Shown here: positions 7,978 to 27,750 of the stretch, one piece after another
Position numbering within the stretch: the first letter of the stretch is position 1
How the letters are laid out: every line of letters begins with the position of its first letter
Assembly (NCBI GenBank): GCA_002710745.1
Contig: PALW01000062.1
Span: forward strand, 1 to 50,689
DNA: 50,689 nt
DNA from: Porticoccaceae bacterium
GTDB taxonomy: Bacteria; Pseudomonadota; Gammaproteobacteria; Pseudomonadales; Porticoccaceae
Direction: 5' to 3'
Notes under the pieces: generated by a model
The model's input: the letters and a program-made list of their open reading frames with translations, nothing else
Databases searched by the model: none
Told to the model about the DNA's origin: nothing
Translations under genes and position numbers: made by a program

Positions 7978-8328
7978 TTGAAATCAATGATTAATCAAGA
8001 ACTTGAATATCGCGCCCTAAAAATACTTCAGGAGCGCCCTGATCTAACTCAACGCCAATTATCTAAAGAACTGGGCGTGAGCTTAGGAAAAACTCATTAT
8101 CTCTTAAAGTCTCTGATTGATGTGGGATGGGTCAAGCTGGATAACTTTCAAAGATCAGGCAATAAGTGGGGGTATGCTTACCTACTTACTCCAAAAGGAG
8201 TTGTGGAGAAGGCTTCCATTACAGTTCGCTTCTTGAATAAAAAAAAACAAGAGTATAACGATCTGCAGCGAGAGATCGCGCAGTTACAACAAGAGATCCA
8301 GCAGCAAGAAATATCTGATAAAAAGTGA
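7978..8328 (+). CDS. MarR-family, EPS-associated winged-helix transcriptional regulator
   Basis: Small wHTH protein (LKILQERPDLTQRQLSKELGVSLGKTHYLLKSLIDVGWVKL...YLLTPKGV) with a coiled-coil tail. This is the architecture of the EPS-associated MarR subfamily (TIGR04176-like, from memory). The start is either TTG 7978 or ATG 7987. Confidence 0.8.
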   Translation: MKSMINQELEYRALKILQERPDLTQRQLSKELGVSLGKTHYLLKSLIDVGWVKLDNFQRSGNKWGYAYLLTPKGVVEKASITVRFLNKKKQEYNDLQREIAQLQQEIQQQEISDKK

Positions 8329-8336
8329 CTTTTTAA

Positions 8337-9332: not shown

Positions 9333-9367
9333 TAGTTTTTAATTGGTAAAAAATAGGGTTGTAATTT

Positions 9368-10264
9368 ATGGTTGCAAAAATTAAAAAAGCTGTGATCCCC
9401 GTAGCCGGCCTTGGCACGCGCATGCTTCCTGCCACTAAAGCAATACCAAAAGAGTTGCTCCCTGTTTATGATCAACCCATCATCGAGCATGTGGTGAAGG
9501 AGGCTATTTTTGGTGGTGTTACCGAAATTATTTTGGTTACCCGAGCTGGGAAAGAGGCGATCGAGAATCACTTCGATGCTCATTATGAGCTTGAGCATCG
9601 ACTGGAAAATAAAGGTAAGAAAAAAATTCTGGGGACGGTTAAGAATATTCTTCCAAAGCATGTAAAAGTTACCTCCATAAGACAGGCCGATGCCTTAGGT
9701 CTCGGCCACGCGGTACTGTGTGCTAAGCATCTTCTAAATAATGAGCCTTTCGCTGTCCTTTTGCCTGATGTCTTGGTTCTTGACAAAGAGGTGCGTGATA
9801 GAAATTATAGTTTTGCGAAGTTGGTGGAAGCTTGGAACACGACAAAAGTGGGTCAGATAATGGTTGAACAAGTTGATTTCAGTGCAGTAGAGAAATATGG
9901 GGTTGCTGATCTTAATGGAGAGGAAATATTACCGTATGAAACTATGCCTCTCCAGGGCTTGGTTGAGAAACCATCTCTAGAGGATGCGCCTTCTAATCTG
10001 GCGGTTTTAGGTCGTTATATTCTGCCCTCAAGAGCTCTTGATTTAATTGAAAATACAAGGGCTGGCGTGGGTGGTGAGATTCAGCTAACAGATGCGCTGG
10101 ATAAGCTATTGAAGACTGATGGATTGAATGCTTTAAAAACAGATGCCGATGTCTATGACTGCGGCAGCAAGGAGGGATTCTTGTCCGCTAACCTTGCGTT
10201 AGGCATGAGAGATCCTAAAATGAAAATTAGGATTATTGAGCTTTTAAAAAAGAGTGGCTCTTGA
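9368..10264 (+). CDS. galU: UTP-glucose-1-phosphate uridylyltransferase
   Basis: KAVIPVAGLGTRMLPATKAIPKELLPV matches the GalU N-terminal signature. The size of about 298 aa fits. Confidence 0.9.
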   Translation: MVAKIKKAVIPVAGLGTRMLPATKAIPKELLPVYDQPIIEHVVKEAIFGGVTEIILVTRAGKEAIENHFDAHYELEHRLENKGKKKILGTVKNILPKHVKVTSIRQADALGLGHAVLCAKHLLNNEPFAVLLPDVLVLDKEVRDRNYSFAKLVEAWNTTKVGQIMVEQVDFSAVEKYGVADLNGEEILPYETMPLQGLVEKPSLEDAPSNLAVLGRYILPSRALDLIENTRAGVGGEIQLTDALDKLLKTDGLNALKTDADVYDCGSKEGFLSANLALGMRDPKMKIRIIELLKKSGS

Positions 10265-10392: not shown

Positions 10393-11796
10393 ATGGGTAT
10401 TTGTGCAGTTATTATGGCAGGAGGATCTGGCACGCGTCTATGGCCCATGTCTCGAGCCACTCATCCGAAACAATTCTTAGCTTTAAATGGTAAACGTACA
10501 ATGCTTCAAAAGACTATTGGTCGATTGGATCGTTTTACTTTGGATGCCTCTGTTACTATTTGTAATGAAGAACATAGGTTTTTTGTAGCGGAACAACTTC
10601 GTGAGATTGATAGGCTCGGCTCGATTATTTTGGAGCCCGTAGGCAGAAATACTGCTCCAGCTGTCGCCTTAGCTGCACTTAAAACCATTAGTGAAGATCC
10701 TCTTCTTCTTGTTCTTTCCGCTGATCATGATATTCAAGATCAAGATGCTTTTGAGAAATCTGTAACTAACGCTATTCCATTGGCTGAATCAGGTAAGCTT
10801 GTAACTTTTGGCATTGTTCCCACTGAGCCCAATGCCAGTTATGGTTATATAAAAAGAGGCTGTGATTTAGTTGGAGGATATTTAGTAGAAAAATTTATTG
10901 AAAAACCCTCAATTGAAGTAGCTAACGATTATGTTAGTTCAGGACAATATTATTGGAATAGTGGAATGTTTCTTTTTAGAGCAAGTCAATACCTCAGTCA
11001 ATTAAAAAAGTTTAGGCCAGAAATATACCAAGTTTGTAAAACTGCAATGCAAAGTGCTGATTTTGATTTAGATTTCTTGAGGGTTCGCAAGAAAGTTTTT
11101 TCAGAATGCCCATCTGAGTCGATTGATTATGCTGTTATGGAAAATACTTCAGATGCAGTTGTAGTGCCTATGGATGCGGGTTGGAGTGATATAGGGTCAT
11201 GGTCATCTCTTTGGAACGTGAGTGAAAAAGATAAAAATGATAACGCAGTTCTGGGTGATGTTTTGCTTCATAACGTGAATGATTGTTATGTCAGGTCTGA
11301 TAATAAATTAGTTGCCGCAGTGGGAGTTAAGGATTTAGTTATTGTTTCTACCGCAGATGCTGTGATGGTGGCGCAGAAAGACAGTGTTCAAGACGTAAAA
11401 GAAATCGTTGCGCAATTAAAACTAGACTCCAGAGACGAGTGGGAATTGCATCGTGAGGTTTATCGACCATGGGGAAAGTATGATTCGGTAGATATTGGAT
11501 CGGGTTATCAAGTCAAAAGACTTACCGTAAACCCAGGTGCCAAGCTGAGTGTCCAGTTGCATTATCATCGCTCAGAACATTGGGTTGTCGTAGCAGGGAC
11601 GGCAACTGTTCACTACGGTGGCGAAAGCATTGATCTTGAAGTAAATCAGTCCACTTACCATGGCAAAGAGGTTGTTCATGCTTTAGAAAATAGAGGTCAA
11701 TTGCCGCTTGAGTTGATTGAGGTTCAGGTGGGAAACTACTTAGGCGAGGATGACATTGTTCTCTTTGAGGACAAGTATGGAAGACAAATCGAGTAA
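10393..11796 (+). CDS. manC: Mannose-1-phosphate guanylyltransferase / mannose-6-phosphate isomerase (bifunctional type II PMI-GMP)
   Basis: MAGGSGTRLWPMSR...PKQFL nucleotidyltransferase motif plus a C-terminal cupin (QLHYHRSEHWVVVAGTA). 467 aa. Confidence 0.9.
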   Translation: MGICAVIMAGGSGTRLWPMSRATHPKQFLALNGKRTMLQKTIGRLDRFTLDASVTICNEEHRFFVAEQLREIDRLGSIILEPVGRNTAPAVALAALKTISEDPLLLVLSADHDIQDQDAFEKSVTNAIPLAESGKLVTFGIVPTEPNASYGYIKRGCDLVGGYLVEKFIEKPSIEVANDYVSSGQYYWNSGMFLFRASQYLSQLKKFRPEIYQVCKTAMQSADFDLDFLRVRKKVFSECPSESIDYAVMENTSDAVVVPMDAGWSDIGSWSSLWNVSEKDKNDNAVLGDVLLHNVNDCYVRSDNKLVAAVGVKDLVIVSTADAVMVAQKDSVQDVKEIVAQLKLDSRDEWELHREVYRPWGKYDSVDIGSGYQVKRLTVNPGAKLSVQLHYHRSEHWVVVAGTATVHYGGESIDLEVNQSTYHGKEVVHALENRGQLPLELIEVQVGNYLGEDDIVLFEDKYGRQIE

Positions 11797-11974
11797 TGTT
11801 TTCGACTAGTTTATCAAATCAGTCCCATTTATAGGTTTAGTGTGAATATCACTAAATTACTGGTACCTAAAGATTTCAGTTTTTAAAATAAGTTAGTGGG
11901 TTTATTTAAAATAAAGATGACTGCTTTTAAAAAGTTATTTAGCGGTCCTAAGAAATCATTTTTGCTGGGTTTAT

Positions 11975-12961
11975 ATGAATAAAGTGGCGTTAATATGTGG
12001 TATTTCTGGCCAAGATGGATCGTGGCTTGCGAAACTTTTTTTGAGTAAAGGTTATAGAGTTGTTGGTACCGCTCGAGACGCTGAAATGAGCAACTTCGAA
12101 AATCTGAAACGACTGAAGATACGTGAAAAAGTGGACACGATTTCAATGTCTCTTGTGGACCTCCGCAGCGTTCAAAAAGTTATTACAGAAATCGCACCGG
12201 ACGAGCTATACAACTTAGCAGGTCAAAGTTCAGTGGGGCTATCTTTCGAACAGCCTGTCGAAACTCTTGAAAGTCATGCATTGGGAACATTGAATTTATT
12301 GGAGGTAATTCGTTTCTCAAAAAAATCAATCCGCTTTTACAATGCATGTTCTGGAGAGTGTTTTGGAAACATGGACTCAAAATCATTTGCTGATGAATCA
12401 TCGGCTTTTAGACCAAAAAGTCCATATGCAATTGCTAAAGCAACTGCTTATTGGGAGGTTGTCAATTATCGCGAGAGCTATGATTTATTCGCCTGTTCTG
12501 GAATTCTTTTCAATCATGAGTCTCACCTGAGACCCGAGCATTTTGTTACACAAAAGATAATTTTAGCTGCATCTCGAATAGCCAAGGGGAGTAATGAAAA
12601 ACTTAAATTGGGTAATATAAAAATCAGTCGTGATTGGGGGTGGGCACCTGATTATGTTGATGCTATGTGGAGAATGTTGCAGCTTGATGAGCCAGAAGAC
12701 TTTGTTATCGCGACAGGCAAAAGAAGTTCTTTACAGGATTTTGTTAACGAGGCTTTTAGTTGCGTGAGGTTAGACTGGCGGGATCACGTTATGGTTGAGG
12801 AATCCTTGTTTAGGCCCTCTGACATAATGAGTAGCTGTGGTTTGCCTGATAAGGCAATGAAAAGATTGGGTTGGAAAGCAAAGCTTAATATGAGCGATGT
12901 GGTCGGAGAAATGATGAAAAAAGCCCTTATGTTATCTTTAAATGATTATGAAAAAATATGA
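11975..12961 (+). CDS. GDP-mannose 4,6-dehydratase paralogue, short form
   Basis: ALICGISGQDGSWLAKLFLSKGY (GxxGQDGS), YAIAKATAYW (YxxxK) and [20 protein letters not shown] (Gmd signature). 328 aa, compared with 377 aa for the canonical gmd at 26474. Confidence 0.8.
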   Translation: MNKVALICGISGQDGSWLAKLFLSKGYRVVGTARDAEMSNFENLKRLKIREKVDTISMSLVDLRSVQKVITEIAPDELYNLAGQSSVGLSFEQPVETLESHALGTLNLLEVIRFSKKSIRFYNACSGECFGNMDSKSFADESSAFRPKSPYAIAKATAYWEVVNYRESYDLFACSGILFNHESHLRPEHFVTQKIILAASRIAKGSNEKLKLGNIKISRDWGWAPDYVDAMWRMLQLDEPEDFVIATGKRSSLQDFVNEAFSCVRLDWRDHVMVEESLFRPSDIMSSCGLPDKAMKRLGWKAKLNMSDVVGEMMKKALMLSLNDYEKI

Positions 12962-13944
12962 AAGTTGTATTTTTTCATCGCAAACCAGAAGCGAACTATT
13001 TTAGCGTTGAGGGAACGTTTGAAACTACGAGAAAGTTGATGTCTGAAGATATTGAACCGATTGTAGTTCAATCGCGATTCTTGAGTAGAGGTTTCTTTAG
13101 ACGGCTCTATAATATTATAGAAGCATTTTTTAGGCAGGGAGAAGTAAATCATATAACCGGCGATGTAACGTTTTTAAGTTTTCTTCTTACTAAAAATAAA
13201 ACTTTATTAACAATTCTGGATTCACAGGCTTTGGATCGAATGAAAGGACTCAAGCGAAAACTTTATTTTTTATTCTGGTTTAAAATTCCAGAAAAAAGAG
13301 TAAAACTAATTAGTACCATATCCCAATCTAGCAAAAACGAATTGGTAAAGCTCTTGTGTTGTGATGCTGAAAAAATAAAGGTGGTCCCTGTTTGCATTTC
13401 TCCGAAATATAAAAAGGCACCTTACAAATTTGAAGCTGAAAAGCCTAAGATTCTTCAAGTTGGCACGGCCGAAAATAAAAATTTGGAGCGCTTATGCGCG
13501 GCTATTGAAGGTTTGCCATGCACACTTCATATCATTGGGAAGTTGTCGAAACAACAATTGATGGTTTTGGCGGATAAAGCAATTGATTTCACTAATTCGT
13601 TTGCACTATCGGATGAAGAAATGGTGGCGGAATATATTGATTGTCACTTAGTTTCTTTTGTATCGACATATGAAGGGTTTGGTATGCCAATTATCGAGGC
13701 AAACACGGTTGGACGACCAGTTATTACTAGTAACTTGCTTTCTATGCCTGAAGTTGCTGGTGATTCGGCTTGCCTCGTTGATCCCTTCGATATCAATGAT
13801 ATCAGAGCTGGATTGCTACGGATTATGCAAGATAAAGAATATCGAGTCATGCTTATCGAGAACGGATACAAAAATGCGAATCGATTCAAACCTGAAGGGA
13901 TTGCAAAGCAGTATTCGGAAATCTACAGGGAATTATATTTATGA
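12958..13944 (+). CDS. Glycosyltransferase, GT4 (GT-B) family
   Basis: ATGA overlap with the upstream gene. C-terminal EX7E-type motif STYEGFGMPIIEANTVGRPVITS. Confidence 0.8.
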   Translation: MKVVFFHRKPEANYFSVEGTFETTRKLMSEDIEPIVVQSRFLSRGFFRRLYNIIEAFFRQGEVNHITGDVTFLSFLLTKNKTLLTILDSQALDRMKGLKRKLYFLFWFKIPEKRVKLISTISQSSKNELVKLLCCDAEKIKVVPVCISPKYKKAPYKFEAEKPKILQVGTAENKNLERLCAAIEGLPCTLHIIGKLSKQQLMVLADKAIDFTNSFALSDEEMVAEYIDCHLVSFVSTYEGFGMPIIEANTVGRPVITSNLLSMPEVAGDSACLVDPFDINDIRAGLLRIMQDKEYRVMLIENGYKNANRFKPEGIAKQYSEIYRELYL

Positions 13945-13971
13945 ATATATTCATGAGGGTTGAGGATAAAA

Positions 13972-14991
13972 ATGTTTAAAGGTGAAAAGTGTTTCGTGAT
14001 TGCAGAAATTGGAGTAAATCATGGAGGTAGTATTGATTTAGCGTACAAAATGATTGATGAGGCAAAAAGATGTCAAGCGGATGCGGTAAAATTCCAAACA
14101 TTCCAAGCTTCTAGGCTCGTTAGTAAAAATACACCAAAAGTTCACTATCAAATGTCTACTACTGATAAAAACGAAAGTCATTTTAAAATGATTCAAAATC
14201 TTGAGTTTAAGTACGAAGATCATGAGCCAGTTATTAATTATTGTAAGGCTAAACGAATAGAATTCATATCTACTCCTTATGACATTGAGAGTGCAGTATT
14301 TTTAAATAAGTTAGGAGTAAATATTTTCAAAACAGCGTCAGCAGATATAGTAGATCTGCCATTGCATAAATTTTTATCATCCACCGGGAAAAAAGTAATT
14401 ATTTCAACAGGTATGGCATCTTTAGGTGAGATAGAGGAAGTGCTTTCTATTTATAAAAAAGAGAACATTGACAATGTTGCATTGCTTCATTGTGTTGCCA
14501 ACTATCCATGTTCTTACCAGAGTCTTAACCTTAGAGTAATAACTACTTTGAAAGAGGCATTTGGCCTTCCAGTCGGTTTTTCAGATCATGCTGAAGGATC
14601 TATTCCAGCTGCAGCTTCGATTGCCCTTGGAGCTACAATAGTCGAAAAACACTTTACATTAGACCGTAATATGGTCGGTCCGGACCATAAAGCCTCTAGC
14701 ACGCCAGAGGAGTTTAGGGCTTTAGTTCAGGCTATTAGAATAACCGAGGCAAGTCTGGGATCGAAAGTGAAATCAATTCAAATCGAAGAAAAAGATATGC
14801 GAAAAATATCTAGAAAAAGTTTATTTCTCGCTAAAGATGTTCGAGAGGGTCAAGTTCTAGACGAGCATGATTTTACTTTGAAACGTCCAGGCTCAGGCAT
14901 ATATGCTAACGTTCTTCCAGTTATCGTAGGCAGAAAGGCTTCCCGAGAATTAAAAAAGGGAAAGATCTTGGAATACGGAGATTTTAAGTAA
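13972..14991 (+). CDS. Nonulosonic acid synthase (NeuB/LegI/PseI family) with C-terminal SAF domain
   Basis: CFVIAEIGVNHGGSIDLAYKMIDEAKRCQADAVKFQTF and GFSDHAEG motifs. C-terminal SAF-like segment (RKSLFLAKDVREGQVL...LKRPGSG). ATG 13972 is preceded by GAGGA; the track ORF begins at TTG 13960. Confidence 0.9.
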   Translation: MFKGEKCFVIAEIGVNHGGSIDLAYKMIDEAKRCQADAVKFQTFQASRLVSKNTPKVHYQMSTTDKNESHFKMIQNLEFKYEDHEPVINYCKAKRIEFISTPYDIESAVFLNKLGVNIFKTASADIVDLPLHKFLSSTGKKVIISTGMASLGEIEEVLSIYKKENIDNVALLHCVANYPCSYQSLNLRVITTLKEAFGLPVGFSDHAEGSIPAAASIALGATIVEKHFTLDRNMVGPDHKASSTPEEFRALVQAIRITEASLGSKVKSIQIEEKDMRKISRKSLFLAKDVREGQVLDEHDFTLKRPGSGIYANVLPVIVGRKASRELKKGKILEYGDFK

Positions 14992-14996
14992 AATCT

Positions 14997-15638
14997 ATGT
15001 CAAACCAAAAAAACGATATCTTAATGGTTGGCACAGGCGGACATGCTAGGTTCGTAATATCCGTATTGAATAAAATTAGTCGGCCAATTAAAGGTCTGAT
15101 ATCTGTTGATGAGGTGTATGATCCGTCTGAAGAAATTCTAAGTAATAAAATAGTTGGATCAATACTTGATTTGAACTATTTTTACTCTATGGGTTATCGG
15201 GAGCTAGTGCTTGCCATTGGGGATAATCAGTTGAGGAAAGATCTTTTTAATAAATATTCTAAAGCTGGTTTCTCTTTTCAGTCCTTTATTCATCCTGAGT
15301 CTTCAGTTGATACAAGCTTAAATTTAGGAGAAGGAAATATATTTGGCCCGCAAGTTGTGATAGGTGCAAATGTCCAGATTGGAAATAACAATATATTTAA
15401 TTCATCCTGCGTAATAGAACATGAAACCATTGTCGGAAATCATTGCCATGTGGCTCCAGGTGCCACTATATGCGGTCGAGTTGTTTTAGGAAATGAAGTT
15501 TTAGTAGGAGCAAATAGTACCATTTTGGATAAAAAAGCAGTAGCAAGTAAGACGATTGTTGGGGCAGGGTCCACATTGATTGAGTCTGTAATAATTGAGT
15601 CTCAAGTAATGGTTGGAAGTCCTGCGAGACCGATTTAA
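14997..15638 (+). CDS. NeuD/PglD/PerB-family sugar N- or O-acyltransferase (left-handed beta-helix)
   Basis: N-terminal Rossmann-like ILMVGTGGHARFVISVL followed by hexapeptide repeats (IGANVQIGNNNIFNSSCVIEHETIVGNHCHVAPGATI...). Confidence 0.85.
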   Translation: MSNQKNDILMVGTGGHARFVISVLNKISRPIKGLISVDEVYDPSEEILSNKIVGSILDLNYFYSMGYRELVLAIGDNQLRKDLFNKYSKAGFSFQSFIHPESSVDTSLNLGEGNIFGPQVVIGANVQIGNNNIFNSSCVIEHETIVGNHCHVAPGATICGRVVLGNEVLVGANSTILDKKAVASKTIVGAGSTLIESVIIESQVMVGSPARPI

Positions 15639-15640
15639 CG

Positions 15641-16486
15641 ATGGTCTATCTTTCCACAGGGGGATTCCCTAATTTGTCTTTTGATAAAGTAGTTGAAAGT
15701 CTTAATGAGGTTGATATTAATGCCTTTGAATTGTCTGGCGGTCGCTACACCGGTGAGATAAAGAATAAGCTAAAAAAACTTAGTTTAGATAATAGTCTGG
15801 CTATACATAATTACTTTCCACCATATGAAGTTCCATTTGTCTTTAATTTAGCATCACTCAACAATGAAATTGCTGTAAGTAGCTTACGTCATGCCAAGTT
15901 AGCTATTGATTATTCATCATATATTGGTTGCCGATTTTATAGTTTCCATGCGGGTTATCTTGTTGATCCGTTGGTGACAGAGTTAGGAGAAACAATTGGA
16001 AAACGAAGTTTGAATCCGAGACAAAAAAGTTTATCGATTTTTATATCTCGCACAAATGAATTATCACGTTATGCCAAGGCTAGAAATGTCAAGTTGATGA
16101 TAGAGAATAATGTGCTCTCTACAAGAAATCATCTTGAATTTGGCGATAATCCTTTAATGATGGTTGAGATTAATGAGGCTGATGAGTTAATGTCCAAGAC
16201 AGATGATAACGTTGGATTATTGATAGATGTCGCGCACTTAAAGGTCTCTTCTAAAACCTTAGGCTTTTCACCGCAGGAATACCTGACACATTTTAAAAAT
16301 GTGACTTGGGGATATCATTTTAGTGATAACGACGGCTTTGAGGATACCAATAGTCGGATAACCGATAAATCATGGTTTTGGCCATTTATCAATAAGAAAG
16401 CTTGTTATTTTTCTCTAGAAGTCTACGAGAGTAACAAAAAAATACTTAAATCTCAGTATGAACTAACTAAAGAATTGCTGAAATAA
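15641..16486 (+). CDS. Xylose-isomerase-like TIM-barrel protein (sugar phosphate isomerase/epimerase superfamily), function unknown
   Basis: By-eye resemblance to the AP-endonuclease-2/xylose isomerase-like fold (FYSFHAGY, MIENN, LIDVAHL). Weak assignment. Confidence 0.5.
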   Translation: MVYLSTGGFPNLSFDKVVESLNEVDINAFELSGGRYTGEIKNKLKKLSLDNSLAIHNYFPPYEVPFVFNLASLNNEIAVSSLRHAKLAIDYSSYIGCRFYSFHAGYLVDPLVTELGETIGKRSLNPRQKSLSIFISRTNELSRYAKARNVKLMIENNVLSTRNHLEFGDNPLMMVEINEADELMSKTDDNVGLLIDVAHLKVSSKTLGFSPQEYLTHFKNVTWGYHFSDNDGFEDTNSRITDKSWFWPFINKKACYFSLEVYESNKKILKSQYELTKELLK

Positions 16487-17961
16487 TGTTAAAATTACAA
16501 GATCTTTGTATAGAAAATACCTCAACCTTGATGGATGCTCTTAAGGCTATTGATTTGAATGGAGAAGGAATATTATTTGTCCAAAAAGATAGAGTTTTTT
16601 ATGGAACCCTGACAGATGGAGATATTCGGCGAGCATTAATAGCAGGGGCCTCTCAGCATGAAATTCTTGATCTTTATTGTAATAAAAATGCCTTAACCTT
16701 ACCTATTTTTTGCTCGGACAGTGAAATACAAAGAAATCTCATGAAGCATCAAATAAGTATGATTCCTCTATTAAACTCTGAAGGGTTTGTTGTAGATTTT
16801 GCGGCTAAATCTCGACTCAACAGGCTTCCAATAATGGAGCCCAGCCTTAAAGGTAGAGAAAAGGAATTTGTTAATGATTGCATTGATTCAAATTGGATTT
16901 CATCACAAGGTGCTTATGTCGACAGATTCGAATCTGAATTAAGTGAATTTTGCGGAGGTAGATGCCTGGCTACTAGTAGCGGCACAACAGCGCTGCATCT
17001 TGCTATGCAAGCACTCGAGATTGGTGAAGGTGATGAAGTAATTGCTCCAAATCTGACATTTGGAGCGTCTATCAATTCCATTCTCCATGCCGGTGCAACT
17101 CCGGTGCTAGTGGATGTTTCAGAGAACGATTGGAATATTTGTCCAAAAAGCATTGTGAGAGCTATCGGTCCATCAACAAAAGCTATAATGGTAGTGCATT
17201 TATATGGTACTCCATGTCAAATTTCAGAAATAATGGCCATTGCTTCAGAATACAAATTATTGATAATTGATGACTGTGCGGAGGCGCTTGGAGCTAAGTT
17301 ATATGGAAGACCAGTTGGTTCTTTTGGCGATGCAGCTGCTTTCTCATTCTTTGCAAACAAAGTTATCACTTGCGGGGAGGGTGGAGCTTTAGTTTTGAGG
17401 GAGAACGCTCATCTCGAGAAAGCAAAGATGATGCGTGATCATGGTATGTCACCATCCAAAAGATATTGGCACGAATTTGTAGGATACAATTACCGTATGA
17501 CTAATATACAAGCAGCTATTGGTTGTGCACAGTTAGAAAAATTTGGAGAGTTTGTATCTAACAGGTCAAAGATTTGGTCTCAGTATGAATCACGATTACT
17601 ACCTTCGGGTTACTTTAAAAAACAATTTGTAAGATCTGATGCAGATCAATGTTATTGGTTGTTTACGTTACAGTTAGTTCCGGCTCTCGTTCGCTTTCGA
17701 GACATGATATGTGATCAACTGAGACTTGCGGGAATAGATACTCGTCCCATGTTTTATCCAATGAGTGTAATGCCGGCATTTGAGAAAAACACCAAAAAAG
17801 TCAAAGATCTTAATACCAGCATCAACTTGTCTAAGGCAGGTTTTAGTTTTCCATCTTCAATATCTTTATCTCAAGATGAAATTGACATGATAGCTGAGCA
17901 TACAATAAAAGTAATAGATGATCTGATTTTAGAATACAAGGTTGAAATCGAAATTGATTAA
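16486..17961 (+). CDS. CBS-domain / DegT-DnrJ-EryC1 aminotransferase fusion (Per/LegC-like sugar C4 aminotransferase)
   Basis: About the first 110 aa look like a CBS pair (ALKAIDLNGEGILFVQKDRVFYGTLTDGDIRRAL; MIPLLNSEGFVVDF). The rest resembles remembered GDP-perosamine synthase/LegC sequences (EPSLKGREKEFVNDCIDSNWISSQG, FSFFANKVITCGEGG, YWHEFVGYNYRMTNIQAAIGCAQLE, DTRPMFYP). Confidence 0.85.
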   Translation: MLKLQDLCIENTSTLMDALKAIDLNGEGILFVQKDRVFYGTLTDGDIRRALIAGASQHEILDLYCNKNALTLPIFCSDSEIQRNLMKHQISMIPLLNSEGFVVDFAAKSRLNRLPIMEPSLKGREKEFVNDCIDSNWISSQGAYVDRFESELSEFCGGRCLATSSGTTALHLAMQALEIGEGDEVIAPNLTFGASINSILHAGATPVLVDVSENDWNICPKSIVRAIGPSTKAIMVVHLYGTPCQISEIMAIASEYKLLIIDDCAEALGAKLYGRPVGSFGDAAAFSFFANKVITCGEGGALVLRENAHLEKAKMMRDHGMSPSKRYWHEFVGYNYRMTNIQAAIGCAQLEKFGEFVSNRSKIWSQYESRLLPSGYFKKQFVRSDADQCYWLFTLQLVPALVRFRDMICDQLRLAGIDTRPMFYPMSVMPAFEKNTKKVKDLNTSINLSKAGFSFPSSISLSQDEIDMIAEHTIKVIDDLILEYKVEIEID

Positions 17962-18679
17962 CGGGAAAAAAGTAGTTGCCATAGTTACTGCAAGAGGAGG
18001 TTCGAAGGGGCTCCCTAGGAAAAACAAAAAAGTACTTGCTGGAAAGCCTTTAGTTACCTGGCCTATTGAGGCTGCCGTGATGTGCAATCATGTAGACCGA
18101 GTGCTTTTATCAACGGACTGCACGGAAATAGCTGATATCGGAAGATTAGCTGGTGCTGAGGTGATTTCTTTAAGACCTGAGTATTTAGCTTCAGACCAAG
18201 CAAAAAGCGTAGATGTTATCTTGCATGTGTTGGAAGAACTAAAGTATTTAAAAGATTTCTATGACTATGTTGTTATGCTTGAACCTACGTCCCCACTTAC
18301 GGATTGCGAAGATATTTCAAAGGCACTACTTCTATTGGAGCGGAATCAAAAGGTAGCAGACTCGGTTGTCGGGATAGCAGCTATAGAGGCTACTCACCCA
18401 GAGTATGCCGTAAAAAGCGGAGATAATGGAATATTACAACCCGCTTTTGCGACTGATTTTAGCACCCTACGCAGAAGGCAGGATGTTGAGGAATTATACT
18501 TTCTTGAAGGAACTTTGTATGCGTCTGAAGTTAGTGCCTTGGAAAGGGAAAAAAATTTCTATCATTCGAGAACGATGGGATTTAAGGTTCCACGCTGGAA
18601 GTCTTTTGAGGTTGATGAGATGGTGGATTTTATATGCATCGAGGCAATTCTTGCTAATTTGAATAAGTTAGATAGTTAG
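17942..18679 (+). CDS. CMP-nonulosonic acid synthetase (acylneuraminate cytidylyltransferase family)
   Basis: VVAIVTARGGSKGLPRKNKKVLAGKPLV signature. TTG start at 17942 or 17954, overlapping the end of the upstream gene. Confidence 0.85.
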   Translation: MKSKLINGKKVVAIVTARGGSKGLPRKNKKVLAGKPLVTWPIEAAVMCNHVDRVLLSTDCTEIADIGRLAGAEVISLRPEYLASDQAKSVDVILHVLEELKYLKDFYDYVVMLEPTSPLTDCEDISKALLLLERNQKVADSVVGIAAIEATHPEYAVKSGDNGILQPAFATDFSTLRRRQDVEELYFLEGTLYASEVSALEREKNFYHSRTMGFKVPRWKSFEVDEMVDFICIEAILANLNKLDS

Positions 18680-18714
18680 TACAGTTAATAATATGGCAAC
18701 TTTTTAAGGGTAGT

Positions 18715-19815
18715 ATGATGGCGATTGAAGGCGTTTTTTGGTGTAGTACCTGTTTGAATATGTCCACTAGAAACAGAATTGAATTTGACTCACAGGGACG
18801 TTGCAATGCATGTGTCTGGTCTGAAGAGAAAAAAACACTCGATTGGAAGGGGCGCGAACGCGAACTGAAAGAGTTATTTACAAGACACAAAAATGACGGG
18901 CCATATGACCTGATAGTTCCCGTTAGTGGGGGTAAAGATGGTTCATATGTTGCTTATAACTGTAAGCACAAGTATGGTTTAAATCCCCTTTGTGTGACTG
19001 TTCATCCTCCTACACGCTCGAATATAGGTTACACAAATCTGGAAAATTTTAAAAAATCTGGATATACATTATTGGAAGTGAATCTTCCCTATGAGGCTCT
19101 CAGAAAAATGAATATCCGTGGTTTTGTTGAACAAGGCAGACCTTTATATGGCTGGACAACTGGAATCTTTAGTGCTGTTCTGCGAATTGCTGAAGCATTT
19201 AATATAAGCCTAATAATGTATGGAGAGAATGGAGAGATAGAATATGGCGGATCGAATGACTCAAAGTATAGACCTATTTTCACTCCAGATTTTGCGAAAA
19301 ATGTGTTCCTAGAGAACGAAGTTGATAAGACATTTAGGGATTTGAATGAAAGTGATGCATATTTTTGGACGTTTCCAGATAAGAACTCTAAGGTTGAGTT
19401 GGCTCATTGGTCATATTATGAAGACTGGGATTCCTATAGAAATTATATGATTGCGAAGGAGCATTGTGGTCTTCAAGAGAGAGAGGAGCAAAATTCTGGC
19501 ACATATACCAATTTCGCACAAAATGATAATGTTTTGTATGATCTTCATACCTATCTAATGTACTTAAAGTTTGGATTTGGTAGAGCAACGCAAGACGCAG
19601 GAATAGATATCAGGCGTGGAGCGATGACAAGAGAGCAGGCAGTCCAACTTGCATCTCTATACGATAATGAGTTACCAGAAACATACGTAGATGAATATTT
19701 AGATTATTATCAAATGTCGCGTGCGGAATTTGATCAGGTGCTCTCTAAATGGGCAAATACAGAGCTATTTACTTTTGATGGACATAATTTTACTCCAAAG
19801 TTTGAGATTATCTAA
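18715..19815 (+). CDS. N-acetyl sugar amidotransferase (WbuX/PseA-like PP-loop enzyme)
   Basis: N-terminal Cys pairs CSTC...CNAC and the PP-loop VPVSGGKDGSY. The size and its neighbours (HisH/HisF-like genes) fit the WbuX family. Confidence 0.85.
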   Translation: MMAIEGVFWCSTCLNMSTRNRIEFDSQGRCNACVWSEEKKTLDWKGRERELKELFTRHKNDGPYDLIVPVSGGKDGSYVAYNCKHKYGLNPLCVTVHPPTRSNIGYTNLENFKKSGYTLLEVNLPYEALRKMNIRGFVEQGRPLYGWTTGIFSAVLRIAEAFNISLIMYGENGEIEYGGSNDSKYRPIFTPDFAKNVFLENEVDKTFRDLNESDAYFWTFPDKNSKVELAHWSYYEDWDSYRNYMIAKEHCGLQEREEQNSGTYTNFAQNDNVLYDLHTYLMYLKFGFGRATQDAGIDIRRGAMTREQAVQLASLYDNELPETYVDEYLDYYQMSRAEFDQVLSKWANTELFTFDGHNFTPKFEII

Positions 19816-20420
19816 TGATTGGCATTATTGATTACTCAATAAATAATATCCGTTCTATTCTGAACGCAATCCAATTTTTACAAATTAAACACGAGGTAGT
19901 TACAAATCCAGAGCGACTAAATTCATATAAGATGTTAATTCTTCCTGGCGTAGGTTCGTTTGATTCTGGGGTAACCGCTCTTAAATCGAGTGGTATGTTT
20001 GCAAAACTTCAGTCACTCGATTTAGACAATATTAAAATATTCGGGATTTGTTTGGGTATGCAGTTGTTATGTAAAAATAGTGAAGAAGGACAACTTGAAG
20101 GGTTGGGTTTAATAGATACAAAAGTTGTCAATTTAAAAAATAAACGATGTATTGGGAAAATACCTCATGTTGGATTCAATACCATCATTTCTGGAGGTGA
20201 GAGTAGTTTCTTAGAATCCATGATTGGTAGTGACTTTTATTTTGTTCACTCATTCGGCATCGATCAGCGTTCTATGTTGTTTGAGACAGCGGAGTGCGAC
20301 TATGAAGGAGCAGAAATTATTGCAGCTTTCCATGCTGGAAATATTTTTGGGACGCAATTTCATCCAGAAAAATCTGGTACTAAAGGTCTGGAATTAATCC
20401 GCCGAGCCTATGAATGTTAA
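19815..20420 (+). CDS. Glutamine amidotransferase, HisH-like (WbuY-type)
   Basis: IGIIDY..., catalytic GICLGMQLL and FHPEKS motifs. Start overlaps the stop of the upstream gene. Confidence 0.85.
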   Translation: MIGIIDYSINNIRSILNAIQFLQIKHEVVTNPERLNSYKMLILPGVGSFDSGVTALKSSGMFAKLQSLDLDNIKIFGICLGMQLLCKNSEEGQLEGLGLIDTKVVNLKNKRCIGKIPHVGFNTIISGGESSFLESMIGSDFYFVHSFGIDQRSMLFETAECDYEGAEIIAAFHAGNIFGTQFHPEKSGTKGLELIRRAYEC

Positions 20421-21184
20421 AGAAACGTATTATTTTCGTTCTATTTTACCAAAATGGAAGCTTTCATCTAAGTAGAAATTTCGGTCTGCAAAAGGTCGGC
20501 GATACTCAATGGCTTTTAGAAAAATTCCAATTTTTAAAAATTGGTGATTATATTGATGAATTAATTATTCTCGATGTATCAAGAGATAGAATTAATGAAC
20601 CAGTTTCATCCCAGCTCGAAGAGGATGTTAAAAACCTAATGGCAAAGATTTTTGTACCATTAACTTTAGGCGGAGGCATAAGAACACTTGACCATGTGTC
20701 GAGATGTTTCCAGGCTGGAGCCGATAAAGTAAGTTTAAATTGGGCCTTGGGTAATTCACCTGACTTGATTTCTGAAATCTCAAAAAGATATGGATCTCAA
20801 TCGGTTGTCGCATCTATGGATGTTCGTTATGTTTCTGGGAAATACGATGTGTTTTGTGATTATGGTCAGACGAGAATTGGATCACTTTTAGATGTCTCAA
20901 AACAATCCGAAGATCTTGGTGCGGGAGAACTATTTATTACTAGTATAGACCGTGATGGTACTGGTTTTGGTTTAGATTTGAATATTTTCAAGGAACTAGA
21001 GGATGTTAGAGTTCCAATTATTGCTTCTGGTGGCGCCGGGAAGCCGCTTCATTTTTTTGAAGCATTAAGTTTGAAAAGTATCTCTGGAGTGGCGACGGGA
21101 AATCTTTTCAATTTTATGGGATCTGGATTTTTCGAGCTCAGGAGCGAACTGGGTAAAAAATTACCATACTTGCGTAAATTATAA
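20414..21184 (+). CDS. HisF-like cyclase subunit (WbuZ-type)
   Basis: (beta/alpha)8 HisF-like motifs (LTLGGGIRT, ITSIDRDGTGFG, IASGGAG). Overlaps the hisH-like gene by 7 nt. Confidence 0.85.
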   Translation: MLKKRIIFVLFYQNGSFHLSRNFGLQKVGDTQWLLEKFQFLKIGDYIDELIILDVSRDRINEPVSSQLEEDVKNLMAKIFVPLTLGGGIRTLDHVSRCFQAGADKVSLNWALGNSPDLISEISKRYGSQSVVASMDVRYVSGKYDVFCDYGQTRIGSLLDVSKQSEDLGAGELFITSIDRDGTGFGLDLNIFKELEDVRVPIIASGGAGKPLHFFEALSLKSISGVATGNLFNFMGSGFFELRSELGKKLPYLRKL

Positions 21185-21233
21185 AGTTTGTTTTTATTTT
21201 ATAAAAACTAATTACCTTTTTGAGTTTATTAAT

Positions 21234-21893
21234 ATGCAGTTTCGGATTAGTTTGAAAGAACAGGAATTGGCAGGATATTTGGTGTCTCAATTGAATAGTT
21301 TTTTCCCGTCAAAGCCCTTAGTTTGTATTAAAGATTTGCTCAAGCTTCAAAGTTTAGCTTTAAACAAACTCGAATTTTGTTTTAGTAAGATAAATATTAA
21401 GTACTTTTGTGATGGTAAGACATCGATATTTAATCATTTGAATGGAGATCAATACAGTATGTACCTCTACTTGATGAGTTATTTAGCGTATAAGGATCTT
21501 AATAATTCTGAGTTAGCATCAAAAATTTATTTATTAAATAAAAGTCTTCATGGTATCGACGCTTTTTATGAAGTTGAGTTACCAAATATATTCTTATTTA
21601 TCCATCCGTTAGGCACGGTTCTGGGAAGAGCATCGTATAGTGACTATCTTTTGGTTTATCAGCGCTGCGGTATAGGTGCTAATAAAGGTTTCAAGCCTTC
21701 ACTAGGAAAGTTCCTAACCTTGCACCCGGGGGCGTCTATTTTGGGAAGGTCAGTGACAGGTAATAACTGTGCTGTTGGTAGCGATTCTTTAGTTATTGAT
21801 AAGACTATAAAAGATAATACAACATATATAGGGAATCCGAAGAATTATTACTTGTTGTTTAAAGAGTCTGATTTTGGAGTTTGGAAAATTTAA
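21234..21893 (+). CDS. Hexapeptide-repeat acetyltransferase, serine-acetyltransferase-like
   Basis: Helical N-terminal domain followed by a left-handed beta-helix (IHPLGTVLGRA...IGANKG...LHPGASILGRSVTGNNCAVGSDSLV). Confidence 0.7.
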   Translation: MQFRISLKEQELAGYLVSQLNSFFPSKPLVCIKDLLKLQSLALNKLEFCFSKINIKYFCDGKTSIFNHLNGDQYSMYLYLMSYLAYKDLNNSELASKIYLLNKSLHGIDAFYEVELPNIFLFIHPLGTVLGRASYSDYLLVYQRCGIGANKGFKPSLGKFLTLHPGASILGRSVTGNNCAVGSDSLVIDKTIKDNTTYIGNPKNYYLLFKESDFGVWKI

Positions 21894-21923
21894 CACTACC
21901 CATGAGGAGTTGAGGAAATAGAA

Positions 21924-23246
21924 ATGGTAACTAAACGAGGTAAAGGTCAAGAATTATGGAAAAAAGCTAAGACTATAATTCCTGGAGGAAATCAGCTCTT
22001 ATCCAAGCGATCAGAGATGTTTTTGCCTAATCTTTGGCCATCATATTACTCCAAAGCTAGTGGTTATAAAATTTGGGATCTTGATGATAATGAGTTTAAT
22101 GATTTTGCTACTATGGGTGTTGGCTCCTGTGTTCTAGGTTATGCTGATGCGGACGTAAATTCTCGCGTTAAAGATTCTATAGACCGAGGCTCTATGTCAT
22201 CGCTAAACTCGTACGAAGAAGTTGAATTAGCAGAAAAGTTAGTTTGTCTCCATCATTGGGCTGACATGGCCAGATTTTCAAGGTCAGGGGGAGAGGCTTG
22301 CTCGATTGCTATAAGGATTGCGAGAGCTCATGCTAAGAGAGATAAGGTTTTATTTTGTGGTTATCACGGATGGCATGACTGGTATTTATCTTCAAATATA
22401 GAGGATGCTACCAACCTTAATCAACAGCTTTTGGCGGGTCTGTCCAGTGATGGAGTTGCTAAGAACTTGACTGGTACAGCACTTCCTTTTACATATAACG
22501 ATCTAGATGGTTTTTGTAATCTAGTAGCTCGCCATAAAGGAGAAATTGCAGCCGTAATTATGGAGCCCATGAGAGGATCTGCTCCTAATCAAGGATTTTT
22601 GGAAGGTATTAGAGAGATTACAAGAGAGCAGGGGATTGTATTGATTTTTGATGAGATTACCTCTGGTTTTCGTGTTAATTTTGGGGGTGTCCATATGACC
22701 TATGGTGTTCACCCAGATATGGCGATATTCGGCAAGGCATTAGGTAACGGCTTTCCAATTTCCGCTATTGTGGGTACTTCCAAAGTAATGGATGCAGCGC
22801 AGGGAACGTTTGTTAGTTCCACGTTTTGGACAGAGCGGGTAGGTTTTACAGCAGCTTTAGCAACACTAGAAAAGTATGAGAAGCGCAAAGTTCATTTGCG
22901 TCTCACTGAGTGTGGAAAAAAAATTAATAAAAGTTGGAATGATATAGCAGAATTGACAGGATTAGATGTAAGTATTTCGGGTTTAGAGCCACTCACTCAT
23001 ATAGATTTTAACTACTCTAGCGGAGCTTGTCTTCAAACAATTTACACACAAGAAATGTTAAAGCGAGGACATTTATTAGGATCTAGCGTGTATACAACTT
23101 ATGCATATGATGATGAGGTTCTAGAGGAGTTCCATAAAGATTCTGTCGAGTCGTTTAAGATTATTAAGTCCGCAATAGAGTCTGGGCATCCAGAAAGATT
23201 TTTAATCTCTGGTGTGAAGCATTCTGGATTTCAAAGATTAACTTAA
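21924..23246 (+). CDS. Class-III PLP aminotransferase, glutamate-1-semialdehyde aminomutase-like
   Basis: HemL-like layout: GGNQLLSK, SRSGGEA, IFDEITSGFR and the candidate PLP lysine in FGKALGNG. Confidence 0.8.
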   Translation: MVTKRGKGQELWKKAKTIIPGGNQLLSKRSEMFLPNLWPSYYSKASGYKIWDLDDNEFNDFATMGVGSCVLGYADADVNSRVKDSIDRGSMSSLNSYEEVELAEKLVCLHHWADMARFSRSGGEACSIAIRIARAHAKRDKVLFCGYHGWHDWYLSSNIEDATNLNQQLLAGLSSDGVAKNLTGTALPFTYNDLDGFCNLVARHKGEIAAVIMEPMRGSAPNQGFLEGIREITREQGIVLIFDEITSGFRVNFGGVHMTYGVHPDMAIFGKALGNGFPISAIVGTSKVMDAAQGTFVSSTFWTERVGFTAALATLEKYEKRKVHLRLTECGKKINKSWNDIAELTGLDVSISGLEPLTHIDFNYSSGACLQTIYTQEMLKRGHLLGSSVYTTYAYDDEVLEEFHKDSVESFKIIKSAIESGHPERFLISGVKHSGFQRLT

Positions 23247-23281
23247 GATATGCCCGCTTTGAAAAAACTTCATATCATAAA

Positions 23282-24106
23282 ATGGTAAATACCATGAAAA
23301 TTCTAAAAAAATTCTGTCTCGATGAAAAGGTTGCTTTAGTAACAGGCGGCAGCGGATTGCTTGGTAGAAAAATATGTGAGGGCCTTCTAGATGTTGGTGC
23401 TTTTGTTGCTCTAATTGATGTTAATCTGAATGAGATTGAGGAGTGGTCAGCTCAACTCGACATAAAAAAAGGGCAATTGAGTATTTTTGAGTGCGACGTA
23501 TCTAGTGATAGATCAGTTAAATTATGCGTGGACGCAGTAGTTAAAACATTTGGTCATATTGATATTCTTTTTAACAATGCAGCTACCAAAACTGCGAATT
23601 TGCATGACTTTTTTGAGTCATTCGAAAAGTATTCGATAGATGTTTGGCGACAAGTAATGTCCGTAAATATAGATGGAATGTTTTTGATGGCTCAAGCTGT
23701 TGGGCCACATATGATTAAGGTTGGAGGTGGTTCTATAGTTCAAACTTCATCTATTTATGGTTTAAGTGGTCCAGATAATAGGATATATAAAGGCTCTGAA
23801 TATTTAGGTATGGAGATCAATAGTCCTGCCGTTTATTCTGCTTCGAAAGCGGCTGTAGTGGGGTTTACTAAGTGGTTAGCAACATATTGGGCTTCTAAGG
23901 AAATTAGAGTAAATTGTTTGGTTCCAGGAGGCGTATCTAGCGGTCAAAACTCTGTTTTTTCTAAAGCATACTCTGACCGTATTCCTATGGGCAGAATGGC
24001 TTTTCCCAGTGAGCTAATTCCTTTAGCAATATACTTGGCTTCGGATGCATCTACCTACGTTACTGGTCAAGTAATTTCGGTTGATGGTGGCCTATCTGCT
24101 TGGTGA
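23282..24106 (+). CDS. Short-chain dehydrogenase/reductase (SDR)
   Basis: VTGGSGLLG (TGxxxGxG), NNAA and the YSASKAAV (YxxxK) motif. Confidence 0.85.
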   Translation: MVNTMKILKKFCLDEKVALVTGGSGLLGRKICEGLLDVGAFVALIDVNLNEIEEWSAQLDIKKGQLSIFECDVSSDRSVKLCVDAVVKTFGHIDILFNNAATKTANLHDFFESFEKYSIDVWRQVMSVNIDGMFLMAQAVGPHMIKVGGGSIVQTSSIYGLSGPDNRIYKGSEYLGMEINSPAVYSASKAAVVGFTKWLATYWASKEIRVNCLVPGGVSSGQNSVFSKAYSDRIPMGRMAFPSELIPLAIYLASDASTYVTGQVISVDGGLSAW

Positions 24107-27607: not shown

Positions 27608-27750
27608 ATTTTTTAAACGCTTCAAAATGATCGCATATGCACCTATTTTTTTCTTAATGGAACCACCTTTGCGATTAAATGGTGATCTCTCATGACACAG
27701 ATGTATTTATATCATTAATTACCCCTCATAAGAAAGGTTACAATAATTAT

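Follow-up and report, generated by a model that had tools for sequence, protein, structure and literature searches.

Nonulosonic acids (NulOs), such as the sialic, legionaminic and pseudaminic acids, influence the surface charge of bacteria, their recognition by the immune system and the adsorption of phages. To our knowledge, all bacterial NulO routes start from UDP- or GDP-linked N-acetylglucosamine (GlcNAc), or in the case of Kdn from mannose, and need a nucleotide-sugar hydrolase of the NeuC, LegG or PseG type. Here we describe a NulO locus at positions 10393-24106 of a 50,689-nucleotide stretch from a Porticoccaceae bacterium (GenBank assembly GCA_002710745.1, contig PALW01000062.1, positions 1 to 50,689 of the forward strand); the whole stretch is called the window below. 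Five of its genes, encoding a NeuB-family synthase, an acyltransferase, a TIM barrel protein, an aminotransferase with a CBS pair and the cytidylyltransferase NeuA, recur together in many bacteria. We give slightly better than even chances to the view that this five-gene module makes a CMP-activated NulO from GDP-mannose and not from UDP- or GDP-GlcNAc.

Described pathways related to the module

In Campylobacter jejuni, CMP-legionaminic acid is reportedly made by PtmE/GlmU, LegB, LegC, LegH, LegG, LegI and LegF, a pathway that Schoenhofen et al. are said to have worked out in 2009 (Glycobiology 19:715). The legionaminic acid (Leg) pathway and the module would have in common GDP-linked intermediates, a C4 aminotransferase of the Per/LegC clade, an N-acetyltransferase of the PglD/NeuD type, a NeuB-type synthase and a CMP-transferase. 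Both also have a CBS domain on the first committed enzyme, which is PtmE in C. jejuni and would be the aminotransferase here, and an optional amidination of the PtmG/WbuX type. The module differs in that it has no LegB, LegG or PtmE; its dehydratase would be Gmd, and a TIM barrel protein stands where the hydrolysing 2-epimerase would be. A GDP-mannose precursor would also leave a hydroxyl group at C5 instead of an acetamido group.

The GDP-N-acetylperosamine (GDP-PerNAc) pathway consists of ManC, Gmd, Per and PerB (Caulobacter crescentus, structures 3DR4/3BN1 and 4EA7), and its first three enzymatic steps are like those that we propose. In that pathway GDP-PerNAc is the glycosyl donor, whereas the module would hydrolyse it and extend the sugar by three carbons with phosphoenolpyruvate (PEP). 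The module aminotransferase further differs from Per by its N-terminal CBS pair. The pseudaminic acid (Pse) pathway, made up of PseB, PseC, PseH, PseG, PseI and PseF, has the same six-step logic and a nucleotide-sugar hydrolase that acts without 2-epimerisation, but it is based on UDP-GlcNAc and relies on an inverting dehydratase of the CapD/FlaA1 type and on PseG, a GT-B hydrolase, neither of which occurs in the window. The logic of the module is that of the GDP-PerNAc pathway with the last two NulO steps added, and it parallels the six-step Pse and Leg schemes.

Two known sugars come near to the predicted product. Kdn is made from mannose or mannose-6-phosphate and PEP, so that a manno-configured 2-hydroxy precursor gives a 5-hydroxy NulO, as proposed here. 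Unlike the predicted product, Kdn is neither amino-substituted nor 9-deoxy, and no Gmd, aminotransferase or acyltransferase is needed to make it. In Fusobacterium nucleatum, a 2017 study reportedly found a natural mono-amino, 9-deoxy NulO with an acetamidino group. That sugar has its amino group at C5 and its hydroxyl group at C7, the opposite of what a perosamine-derived NulO would have.

In the openly searchable (non-subscription) literature we found no description of a perosamine-derived or 3,7,9-trideoxy NulO, or of a NulO cluster with a CBS-aminotransferase and a TIM barrel gene. Work on the Vibrionaceae nab clusters, work on NeuB phylogeny and the SugarBase preprint do not describe the module. 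An earlier note on this DNA, made from its sequence, had called the route undescribed, and the literature agrees with this as far as we searched it.

The five-gene module and its distribution

All open reading frames (ORFs) of at least 100 amino acids (aa) in the window were compared with Pfam and TIGR/NCBIfam models and the cutoffs of these. Every gene that the earlier note had listed, from NeuB through to a short-chain dehydrogenase/reductase (SDR), is present at 10393-24106, and all are encoded on the + strand. In brief, the NeuB-family NulO synthase is encoded at 13960-14991 (Pfam NeuB 295 bits, plus SAF); its likely start is the ATG at 13972, giving a protein of 339 aa, and it scores 396.3 bits on TIGR03569 (cutoff 399.65). 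The NeuD/PglD/PerB-type acyltransferase follows at 14997-15638 and the TIM barrel protein at 15641-16486; the latter is an AP_endonuc_2 protein of the xylose-isomerase-like/endonuclease-IV-like kind (PF01261, 56 bits, cutoff 31). The aminotransferase (16486-17961, 491 aa) has a DegT domain at residues 121-471 (370 bits), and its residues 10-103 resemble the CBS-pair region of GutQ (E = 2e-7); homologues of the enzyme have PF00571. NeuA, the CMP-NulO synthetase, is a cytidylyltransferase (Pfam CTP_transf_3) encoded at 17942-18679, with a likely start at 17954 that gives 241 aa. The top PDB matches of NeuA are CMP-Neu5Ac synthetases (6IFD, 124 bits).

Relatives of the CBS-aminotransferase, about 488 aa long, number in the thousands. 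We compared 80 loci (L numbers) from an alignment-based scan with the aminotransferase, taking one genome per species among the matches listed. This is a broad sample, and the closest relatives, which lie outside it, were added singly (e.g. L088, L090 and contigs labelled Shewanella woodyi and Agarivorans albus). Gene content was determined by tblastn and by all-against-all clustering of ORFs. NeuB, the TIM barrel protein and the aminotransferase occur together in 42 of the 80 loci listed, commonly in the order NeuB-(acyltransferase)-TIM-aminotransferase-NeuA. The presence of NeuB defines this set of module loci; an ORF of the NeuB cluster was called in 41 of the 42, and NeuA was found in 33. 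The TIM family was found in 42 of the 80, namely 40 of the module loci and two contig-end fragments.

The module loci span Bacteroidota, Alpha-, Beta- and Gammaproteobacteria, SAR86, Pelagibacteraceae, Chloroflexota, Firmicutes, Acidobacteriota, Planctomycetota and others. Genomes labelled SAR86, Pelagibacteraceae, Flavobacteriales and Vibrio are among the loci listed, and the module is also present in the contigs labelled Shewanella woodyi and Agarivorans albus. NeuB, the acyltransferase, the TIM barrel protein, the CBS-aminotransferase and NeuA are a conserved and widespread module.

The closest relative of the NulO block is L088, with protein identities of 64-82%. All 11 genes of the block, NeuB through SDR, recur there, and Ugd, an epimerase and a canonical Gmd come next. 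In the window, a promoter and terminator scan of 11975-24106 gave no clear operon boundary inside this region. At least 23 contigs share the arrangement of the window with 99-100% identity; they derive from several samples of marine metagenomes, including Tara Oceans. Since these contigs come from different samples, the locus is not an assembly oddity; it stems from an abundant, clonal, uncultured marine population.

The slot between NeuB and the TIM barrel gene could be scored in 40 loci. It holds a NeuD-type acyltransferase in 13, a GNAT in 12, a formyltransferase in two and a fusion of GNAT and TIM barrel in one. The occurrence of three unrelated acyltransferase families in one slot, a case of non-orthologous displacement, points to a single N-acylation step within one pathway. 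The acyltransferase of the window has as its top PDB match the perosamine N-acetyltransferase PerB from Caulobacter (4EA7, 103.6 bits), with VioB 8 bits lower, and it scores above the cutoff of the NeuD/PglB/VioB subfamily model TIGR03570 (180 bits, cutoff 161).

The module is followed by a WbuX/HisH/WbuZ triad, of which all three components are present and contiguous in the window. WbuX is encoded at 18715-19815 (324 bits, cutoff 203), HisH at 19815-20420 (180 bits, cutoff 105) and a WbuZ/HisF-like protein at 20414-21184, with the WbuZ model as its best match (205 bits, cutoff 300). In L013, L016, L044, L049, L050, L073 and L088, too, the triad is a neighbour of the module or of its aminotransferase. 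Next come genes for a CysE/EpsC-like protein (21234-21893; weak match, E = 5e-10, no Pfam match), a class-III HemL-like aminotransferase (21924-23246) and a PtmA-like SDR (23282-24106). In L088 this trio stands in the same order directly 3' of the triad, with 66-79% identity. L003, L011, L025, L052 and L059 also have a class-III aminotransferase beside the module, paired with an SDR or an oxidoreductase of the Gfo type.

Locus L016, from a Prochlorococcus single-cell genome, encodes Gmd, the CBS-aminotransferase, WbuX, HisH and HisF at 1539-6800, and neither NeuB nor the TIM barrel protein was found within its 14 kb. This suggests an N-acetimidoyl-perosamine-type sugar that is not extended to a NulO.

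Genes of the canonical pathways

The earlier note had seen no PseB/LegB dehydratase, NeuC, LegG, PseG or PtmE in the window, and none was found among the ORFs of 100 aa or longer. On the LegB model (TIGR04180, cutoff 475) the best score in the window is 119, obtained by the epimerase adjoining Ugd (25395-26423); the canonical Gmd scores 104 and a second, short Gmd 61. The note had taken LegB to be CapD/FlaA1-like, which needs correction, as C. jejuni LegB has a family model of its own, TIGR04180; LegB in this sense is absent too. A hydrolysing 2-epimerase of the NeuC/LegG type was not found, the sole Epimerase_2 protein of the window being a WecB (47642-48775). As the note had it, this is the non-hydrolysing type, with 494 bits for that model and 102 for NeuC (cutoff 236), and a UDP-ManNAc dehydrogenase gene follows directly (48776-49990). 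We found no PtmE-type CBS-nucleotidyltransferase in the window, where the only NTP-transferases are ManC and a GalU-like protein. Likewise, the window ORFs include neither a full Polysacc_synt_2 protein nor a GT28 protein resembling PseG, and scores on the Pse models are all below cutoff (PseC 261 against 423.5, PseI 280 against 340, PseF 131 against 206). Judged by these family models, the module is not a member of the Leg, Pse or Neu pathways. Beyond the window, a jackhmmer search seeded with WecB found Epimerase_2 (NeuC/WecB) in only two of the 80 loci listed, in neither case inside the module.

The aminotransferase and the precursor

Among solved structures, the aminotransferase is most similar to Per from Caulobacter (3DR7/3BN1, 312 bits), followed by PglE (159) and PseC (123). 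The LegC-family model TIGR04181 (cutoff 420) gives 320 bits for the window enzyme and 356 for its orthologue in L029. The neighbour-joining tree interleaves the module aminotransferases with enzymes that lack a CBS pair and are encoded directly downstream of Gmd/ManC, the classical per context (L056, L065, L066, L069 and L072), and it places second-copy aminotransferases of the module loci outside this group. The earlier note had described the enzyme as Per/LegC-like; NCBIfam gave no model specific to Per. Given the 312 bits to Caulobacter Per and the clade-mates that follow Gmd, Per activity on GDP-4-keto-6-deoxymannose is predicted.

The genes that would supply GDP-PerNAc synthesis, ManC, a canonical Gmd and a short-form Gmd, are all present in the window. 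In the other module loci, a true Gmd is the recurrent extended SDR, found in 9 of 42, and other extended SDR types are scattered. On TIGR01472 the Gmds beside the module reach 483-593 bits, above its cutoff of 415, against only 78-114 for LegB (cutoff 475). The following arrangements are the most telling. L029, on a Bacteroidales chromosome, is an isolated island of NeuB-NeuD-TIM-aminotransferase-Gmd-NeuA, flanked by a gene for a nucleoid-associated protein and by large ORFs on the opposite strand that cluster with nothing related to polysaccharides. L053 reads Wzz-Gmd-NeuB-GNAT-TIM-aminotransferase-NeuA and is followed by an insertion sequence element. These two are minimal operons in which Gmd and the five module genes are the only ones of relevance. 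Gmd precedes NeuB in L012 and follows NeuA in L090 and L091. The contigs labelled Shewanella woodyi and Agarivorans albus have Gmm-ManC-ManB-Gmd-Fcl-NeuB-NeuD-TIM-aminotransferase-NeuA. The earlier note had proposed that manC and the short Gmd could feed the pathway from GDP-mannose. A feed from GDP-mannose into a Per/PerB-like route is what fits the comparative data best; the special feeder role given to the short Gmd is not supported, as detailed below.

The TIM barrel protein

The TIM barrel family has so far been annotated as 'sugar phosphate isomerase/epimerase' only. It comprises 1305 clusters (50% identity) at E <= 1e-3 and 295 at 1e-30. The AlphaFold model of the window protein has a pLDDT of 94 and matches many AP_endonuc_2 members in Foldseek with a probability of 1.0. 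The closest solved structure is 3WQO (MJ1311; TM 0.75, 18% identity), and the structural neighbours include ketose 3-epimerases, the 3-keto-glucoside 4-epimerase YcjR, 3-keto-glucoside lyases and endonuclease IV. Sequence and profile searches against the PDB gave marginal matches only.

Invariant residues of the family are H56, H84, H103, D109, E155, D196, H199, H226, D229, D235 and E260. A weak and partial hhalign alignment with Escherichia coli Nfo pairs FHAG with FHPG (H103 with H109), IEN with IEN (E155 with E145) and IDVAH with IDTCH (D196 and H199 with D179 and H182). The equivalence of H56, H226, D229/D235 and E260 to H69, H216, D229 and E261 of Nfo comes from inspection of motifs only, and one Nfo ligand position is apparently Asn, not His, in the TIM barrel protein. 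We take it that endonuclease IV has counterparts of H56, H103, H199 and D229/D235, whereas the single-metal epimerases presumably do not. Nfo and CbiR share with our protein the TIM barrel fold and the FHxG, IEN and IDxxH metal-ligand motifs, which were placed in our protein by the weak alignment. CbiR, an AP_endonuc_2 member, is described as a cobamide phosphodiesterase (bioRxiv 10.1101/2020.09.02.280537 / PMC7733943). It shows that a member of this superfamily can cleave a phosphodiester beside a sugar; the substrate of the TIM barrel protein would be a GDP-sugar.

Gene context ties the protein to the NulO genes. Among the loci listed, the TIM barrel gene was never found with plain per loci, i.e. 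Per-like enzymes without NeuB. In L003, a 425-aa ORF at 8709-9986 fuses a GNAT domain (residues 27-122) to the TIM barrel (residues 195-393), and this Rosetta-stone fusion links the acylation step with the TIM barrel step. No fusions were found among the best 150 representatives of the family; an apparent fusion of 483 aa in L039 was discarded, since the ORF was apparently called too long in GC-rich DNA. No other candidate for a hydrolase is encoded in the minimal operons L029 and L053.

The TIM barrel gene is the only conserved module gene without a step, and release from GDP is the only step without a gene. On these grounds the TIM barrel protein is the probable missing GDP-sugar hydrolase. 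We favour a hydrolase over an epimerase because the gene, among the loci listed, accompanies only those with NeuB, is fused to an N-acetyltransferase gene in L003, and has no competitor in the minimal operons.

Proposed pathway

Family membership and gene context together suggest the following substrate, order of steps, TIM barrel activity and product. Gmd, either the canonical or the short form in the window, would convert GDP-mannose to GDP-4-keto-6-deoxy-D-mannose. The Per-like aminotransferase would form GDP-4-amino-4,6-dideoxy-mannose (GDP-perosamine) in the first committed step, at which the CBS pair could have a regulatory part, to judge from other sugar-pathway enzymes with CBS domains. 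N-acetylation by the PerB/NeuD-like transferase would give GDP-PerNAc; in other lineages a GNAT or a formyltransferase would take this place. The TIM barrel protein, as a metalloenzyme replacing LegG, PseG or NeuC, would then free 4-acetamido-4,6-dideoxy-D-mannose from GDP. As this precursor is already manno-configured, 2-epimerisation would be unnecessary, and NeuB would condense the sugar with PEP to 7-acetamido-3,7,9-trideoxy-non-2-ulosonic acid, which NeuA would convert with CTP to the CMP derivative.

The basic product would be a 7-acylamino-3,7,9-trideoxy (5-hydroxy) non-2-ulosonic acid, C11H19NO8, with a calculated mass of about 293.11 Da. In the window and in L088, WbuX/HisH/WbuZ would turn an N-acetyl group into an acetamidino group. 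The trio of SDR, class-III aminotransferase and CysE-like protein may oxidise, aminate and acylate another position and so add a second acylamino group.

More tentatively, and at somewhat less than even chances, we suggest that this is a widespread, unrecognised NulO pathway via GDP-mannose and GDP-N-acylperosamine, with a new TIM barrel hydrolase, yielding new 5-hydroxy 'Kdn/Leg hybrids' that are displayed on abundant marine and environmental bacteria. If the module acts as we propose, NulO biosynthesis would have a new entry point in GDP-mannose, a new enzyme class for the release step and a new type of sugar. Mass-spectrometric surveys of NulOs could look for a free sugar of about 293.11 Da, and amidino and N-formyl variants would be predictable. 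Many polysaccharide loci would be better annotated if the TIM family had a known function. The proposal is open to direct testing in cultured carriers such as the strains of the Shewanella woodyi- and Agarivorans albus-labelled contigs, with assemblies GCA_900079515.1 and GCA_000414175.1, and Vibrio sp. Of14-4 (L051).

Alternative explanations

Several observations weigh against the pathway proposed above. No Gmd is found within 10 kb in 33 of the 42 module loci. The adjacent Gmd often comes with Fcl (L015, L020, L035, L051, L058, L092, L093 and the window), and there GDP-fucose synthesis alone could explain it, so the argument for a GDP-mannose precursor is carried by the Gmd-only operons. 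Per and LegC are sister activities, and the 320-356 bits on the LegC model would leave room for a substrate derived from GDP-GlcNAc. The CBS-aminotransferase is not exclusive to the module, as it also occurs in loci without NeuB and TIM barrel genes (L004, L009 and L016). The window is a metagenome contig, and the absence of legB and legG covers the window only. As to the TIM barrel protein, keto-sugar epimerases are its nearest structural relatives as much as endonuclease IV is, and the profile alignment with Nfo has a probability of 2% and covers part of the protein. A GDP-mannose route could stand with the TIM barrel protein as a metal-dependent epimerase or isomerase whose target is C3 and/or C5, beside the 4-keto group, or else the free sugar. 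This would give a product of another configuration, and an unlinked enzyme such as a Gmm-type NUDIX hydrolase would cleave the GDP-sugar. The ketose 3-epimerases, YcjR and related isomerases among the top structural neighbours fit this idea, as do the canonical E-D-H-E metal ligands (E155, D196, H226 and E260) and the NUDIX genes seen in L090 and, as a Gmm at the head of the operon, in L092 and L093. NUDIX genes are sporadic, however, and in L092 and L093 Gmm is part of a standard gmm-manC-manB-gmd-fcl set, while L029 and L053 do without any such candidate. The invariant H56 and H103, at the ends of strands 2 and 3, H199 and D229/D235 are what we take to be endonuclease-IV-type residues, and the GNAT fusion sets the TIM barrel beside acylation and not before transamination. 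We regard an epimerase as rather unlikely, though as the main alternative to a hydrolase.

There are two further explanations. The locus might make two products, with Gmd, Per and PerB giving GDP-PerNAc as a common sugar of the repeat unit, and NeuB and NeuA, with the TIM barrel protein as a sugar isomerase, giving Kdn or another NulO from some other precursor. Gmd/Per/PerB is indeed a complete known pathway, NeuB lies at the edge of the Neu5Ac-synthase model, and L016, L004 and L009 have CBS-aminotransferases without NeuB. This would hardly account for five genes that stay together in one order across phyla, for an island in L029 that has no glycosyltransferase for GDP-PerNAc and places Gmd between the aminotransferase and NeuA, or for a TIM barrel gene that never accompanies Per-like enzymes lacking NeuB; two products are improbable. 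The other possibility is a standard legionaminic acid derivative, e.g. Leg5Am7Ac, made by the Campylobacter-type GDP-GlcNAc route, with LegB, LegG and PtmE encoded elsewhere, for instance in a flagellin glycosylation island. The score on the LegC-family model, the resemblance of WbuX to PtmG and of the SDR to PtmA, both Campylobacter ptm products, and the restriction of the legB/legG absence to one metagenome contig would agree with it. Yet in practically none of the 42 loci, which come from unrelated phyla, is LegB or NeuC/LegG encoded beside the module, and this is unexpected for required partners. The co-occurring dehydratase is Gmd, above the Gmd equivalog cutoff and far below that of LegB, and the conserved TIM barrel protein would be left without a role. 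We consider a standard legionaminic acid very improbable.

The short-form Gmd and its cassette

A Gmd of 328 aa is encoded upstream of the NulO genes at 11975-12961 on the + strand (Pfam GDP_Man_Dehyd 349 bits; TIGR01472 318 bits, cutoff 415). Its best PDB matches are all Gmd, with 293 bits to 2Z1M and 276 bits to 1RPN, the enzymes of Aquifex and Pseudomonas. The protein is 41% identical to the canonical Gmd of the window and keeps the SxE, YxxxK and NHES catalytic motifs. It has thousands of homologues of about 320 aa, with 62-72% identity among the best 120, and those named in the source are called Gmd. A divergent or LegB-like enzyme was ruled out by these strong matches, the many relatives and the intact motifs. 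The score below the TIGR01472 cutoff probably reflects the difference between short and long forms.

The short Gmd is followed, with a 4-nt overlap at its stop codon, by a translationally coupled gene for a GT1/GT4-family glycosyltransferase at 12958-13944 (+ strand, Pfam Glycos_transf_1; GT1 below), which does not appear in the gene list of the earlier note. The closest relatives of the short Gmd (71-72% identity) stand in a Gmd-GT1-ABC exporter cassette in L094 (2624-6504) and L095 (669-4561), two unrelated metagenome loci in which no NulO genes were found. The GT1 homologues there are 62-63% identical to that of the window and have the same 4-nt overlap after the short Gmd. A GT1 homologue is found in only one of the 42 module loci, and none of manC, the short Gmd and GT1 was found upstream of the NulO block in L088. 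Because the cassette occurs elsewhere without NulO genes, the short Gmd is, by its relationships, an ordinary short-form Gmd and not a dedicated NulO feeder. The canonical Gmd, which is located at the same position 3' of the NulO block in L088, is an equally plausible source of GDP-4-keto-6-deoxymannose, and neither Gmd appears to be dedicated to the module. GT1 probably transfers a 6-deoxyhexose derived from GDP-mannose and lies outside the NulO module; a role as a PseG-like GDP-sugar hydrolase was ruled out by the cassette without NulO genes and by its occurrence in one of 42 module loci.

In the window the parts of the cassette are found at 11975-13944 and, as a fused ABC exporter gene, at 28926-30659. 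GT1 is separated from the ABC gene by the approximately 15-kb block of NulO, Ugd, Gmd and Fcl genes, which looks like an insertion into the cassette.

Other genes of the locus

The genes described above belong to a single, long surface-polysaccharide locus on the + strand, which runs from yjbH, wza, wzz and a WecA-like initiating transferase on to wecB-wecC. Upstream of manC, at 7978-10264, are genes for a small winged-helix regulator with a helix-turn-helix (HTH), a PfkB-family sugar kinase of 331 aa that matches no equivalog, and a GalU-like uridylyltransferase (9368-10264; TIGR01099 315 bits, cutoff 327). The HTH gene is also found at the head of the NulO block in L088 and L090. ManC, a mannose-1-phosphate guanylyltransferase/phosphomannose isomerase (10393-11796, + strand; TIGR01479 704 bits, cutoff 373; Pfam NTP_transferase and MannoseP_isomer), is the source of GDP-mannose, in common with the downstream GDP-fucose genes.

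Downstream of the SDR, the order is Ugd, the epimerase, canonical Gmd, Fcl, the ABC exporter and glycosyltransferases, which include a GT11 fucosyltransferase-like gene. The canonical Gmd is encoded at 26474-27607 on the + strand (TIGR01472 591 bits, cutoff 415). The Fcl homologue (27679-28866, 395 aa; 451 bits, cutoff 500) spans the 308-position GDP-fucose synthase model in two stretches, implying an insertion of about 50 residues inside Fcl. A candidate NulO transferase of 445 aa is encoded at 30863-32200 on the + strand; its score on TIGR04396, the model of a 'surface carbohydrate biosynthesis protein', is 170 bits (cutoff 125), and it has a weak match to the BFO_1060-family glycosyltransferase and a sub-threshold match to A-2_8-polyST. 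In the Shewanella woodyi-labelled locus, a PF07388 gene lies directly 3' of NeuA.

A second sugar-modification block at 38433-47645 encodes a TviB/WbpO-like UDP-GlcNAc 6-dehydrogenase, an AsnB-type amidotransferase, a Gfo/Idh/MocA oxidoreductase, a 704-aa fusion of ADH_zinc_N and Gfo/Idh/MocA, a heparinase II/III-like protein and a GT4.

In seven loci (L018, L026, L039, L040, L042, L047 and L058) a DHDPS-family (aldolase-like) gene, a second NeuB and a gene for a protein of about 500 aa are located 3' of the module. The second NeuB is divergent, with 23-27% identity, and several of these loci come from Rhodospirillaceae metagenome-assembled genomes (L018, L026 and L039). CMP-activated ulosonic acids longer than C9 have been reported in Magnetospirillum (preprint 10.64898/2026.04.20.719630).

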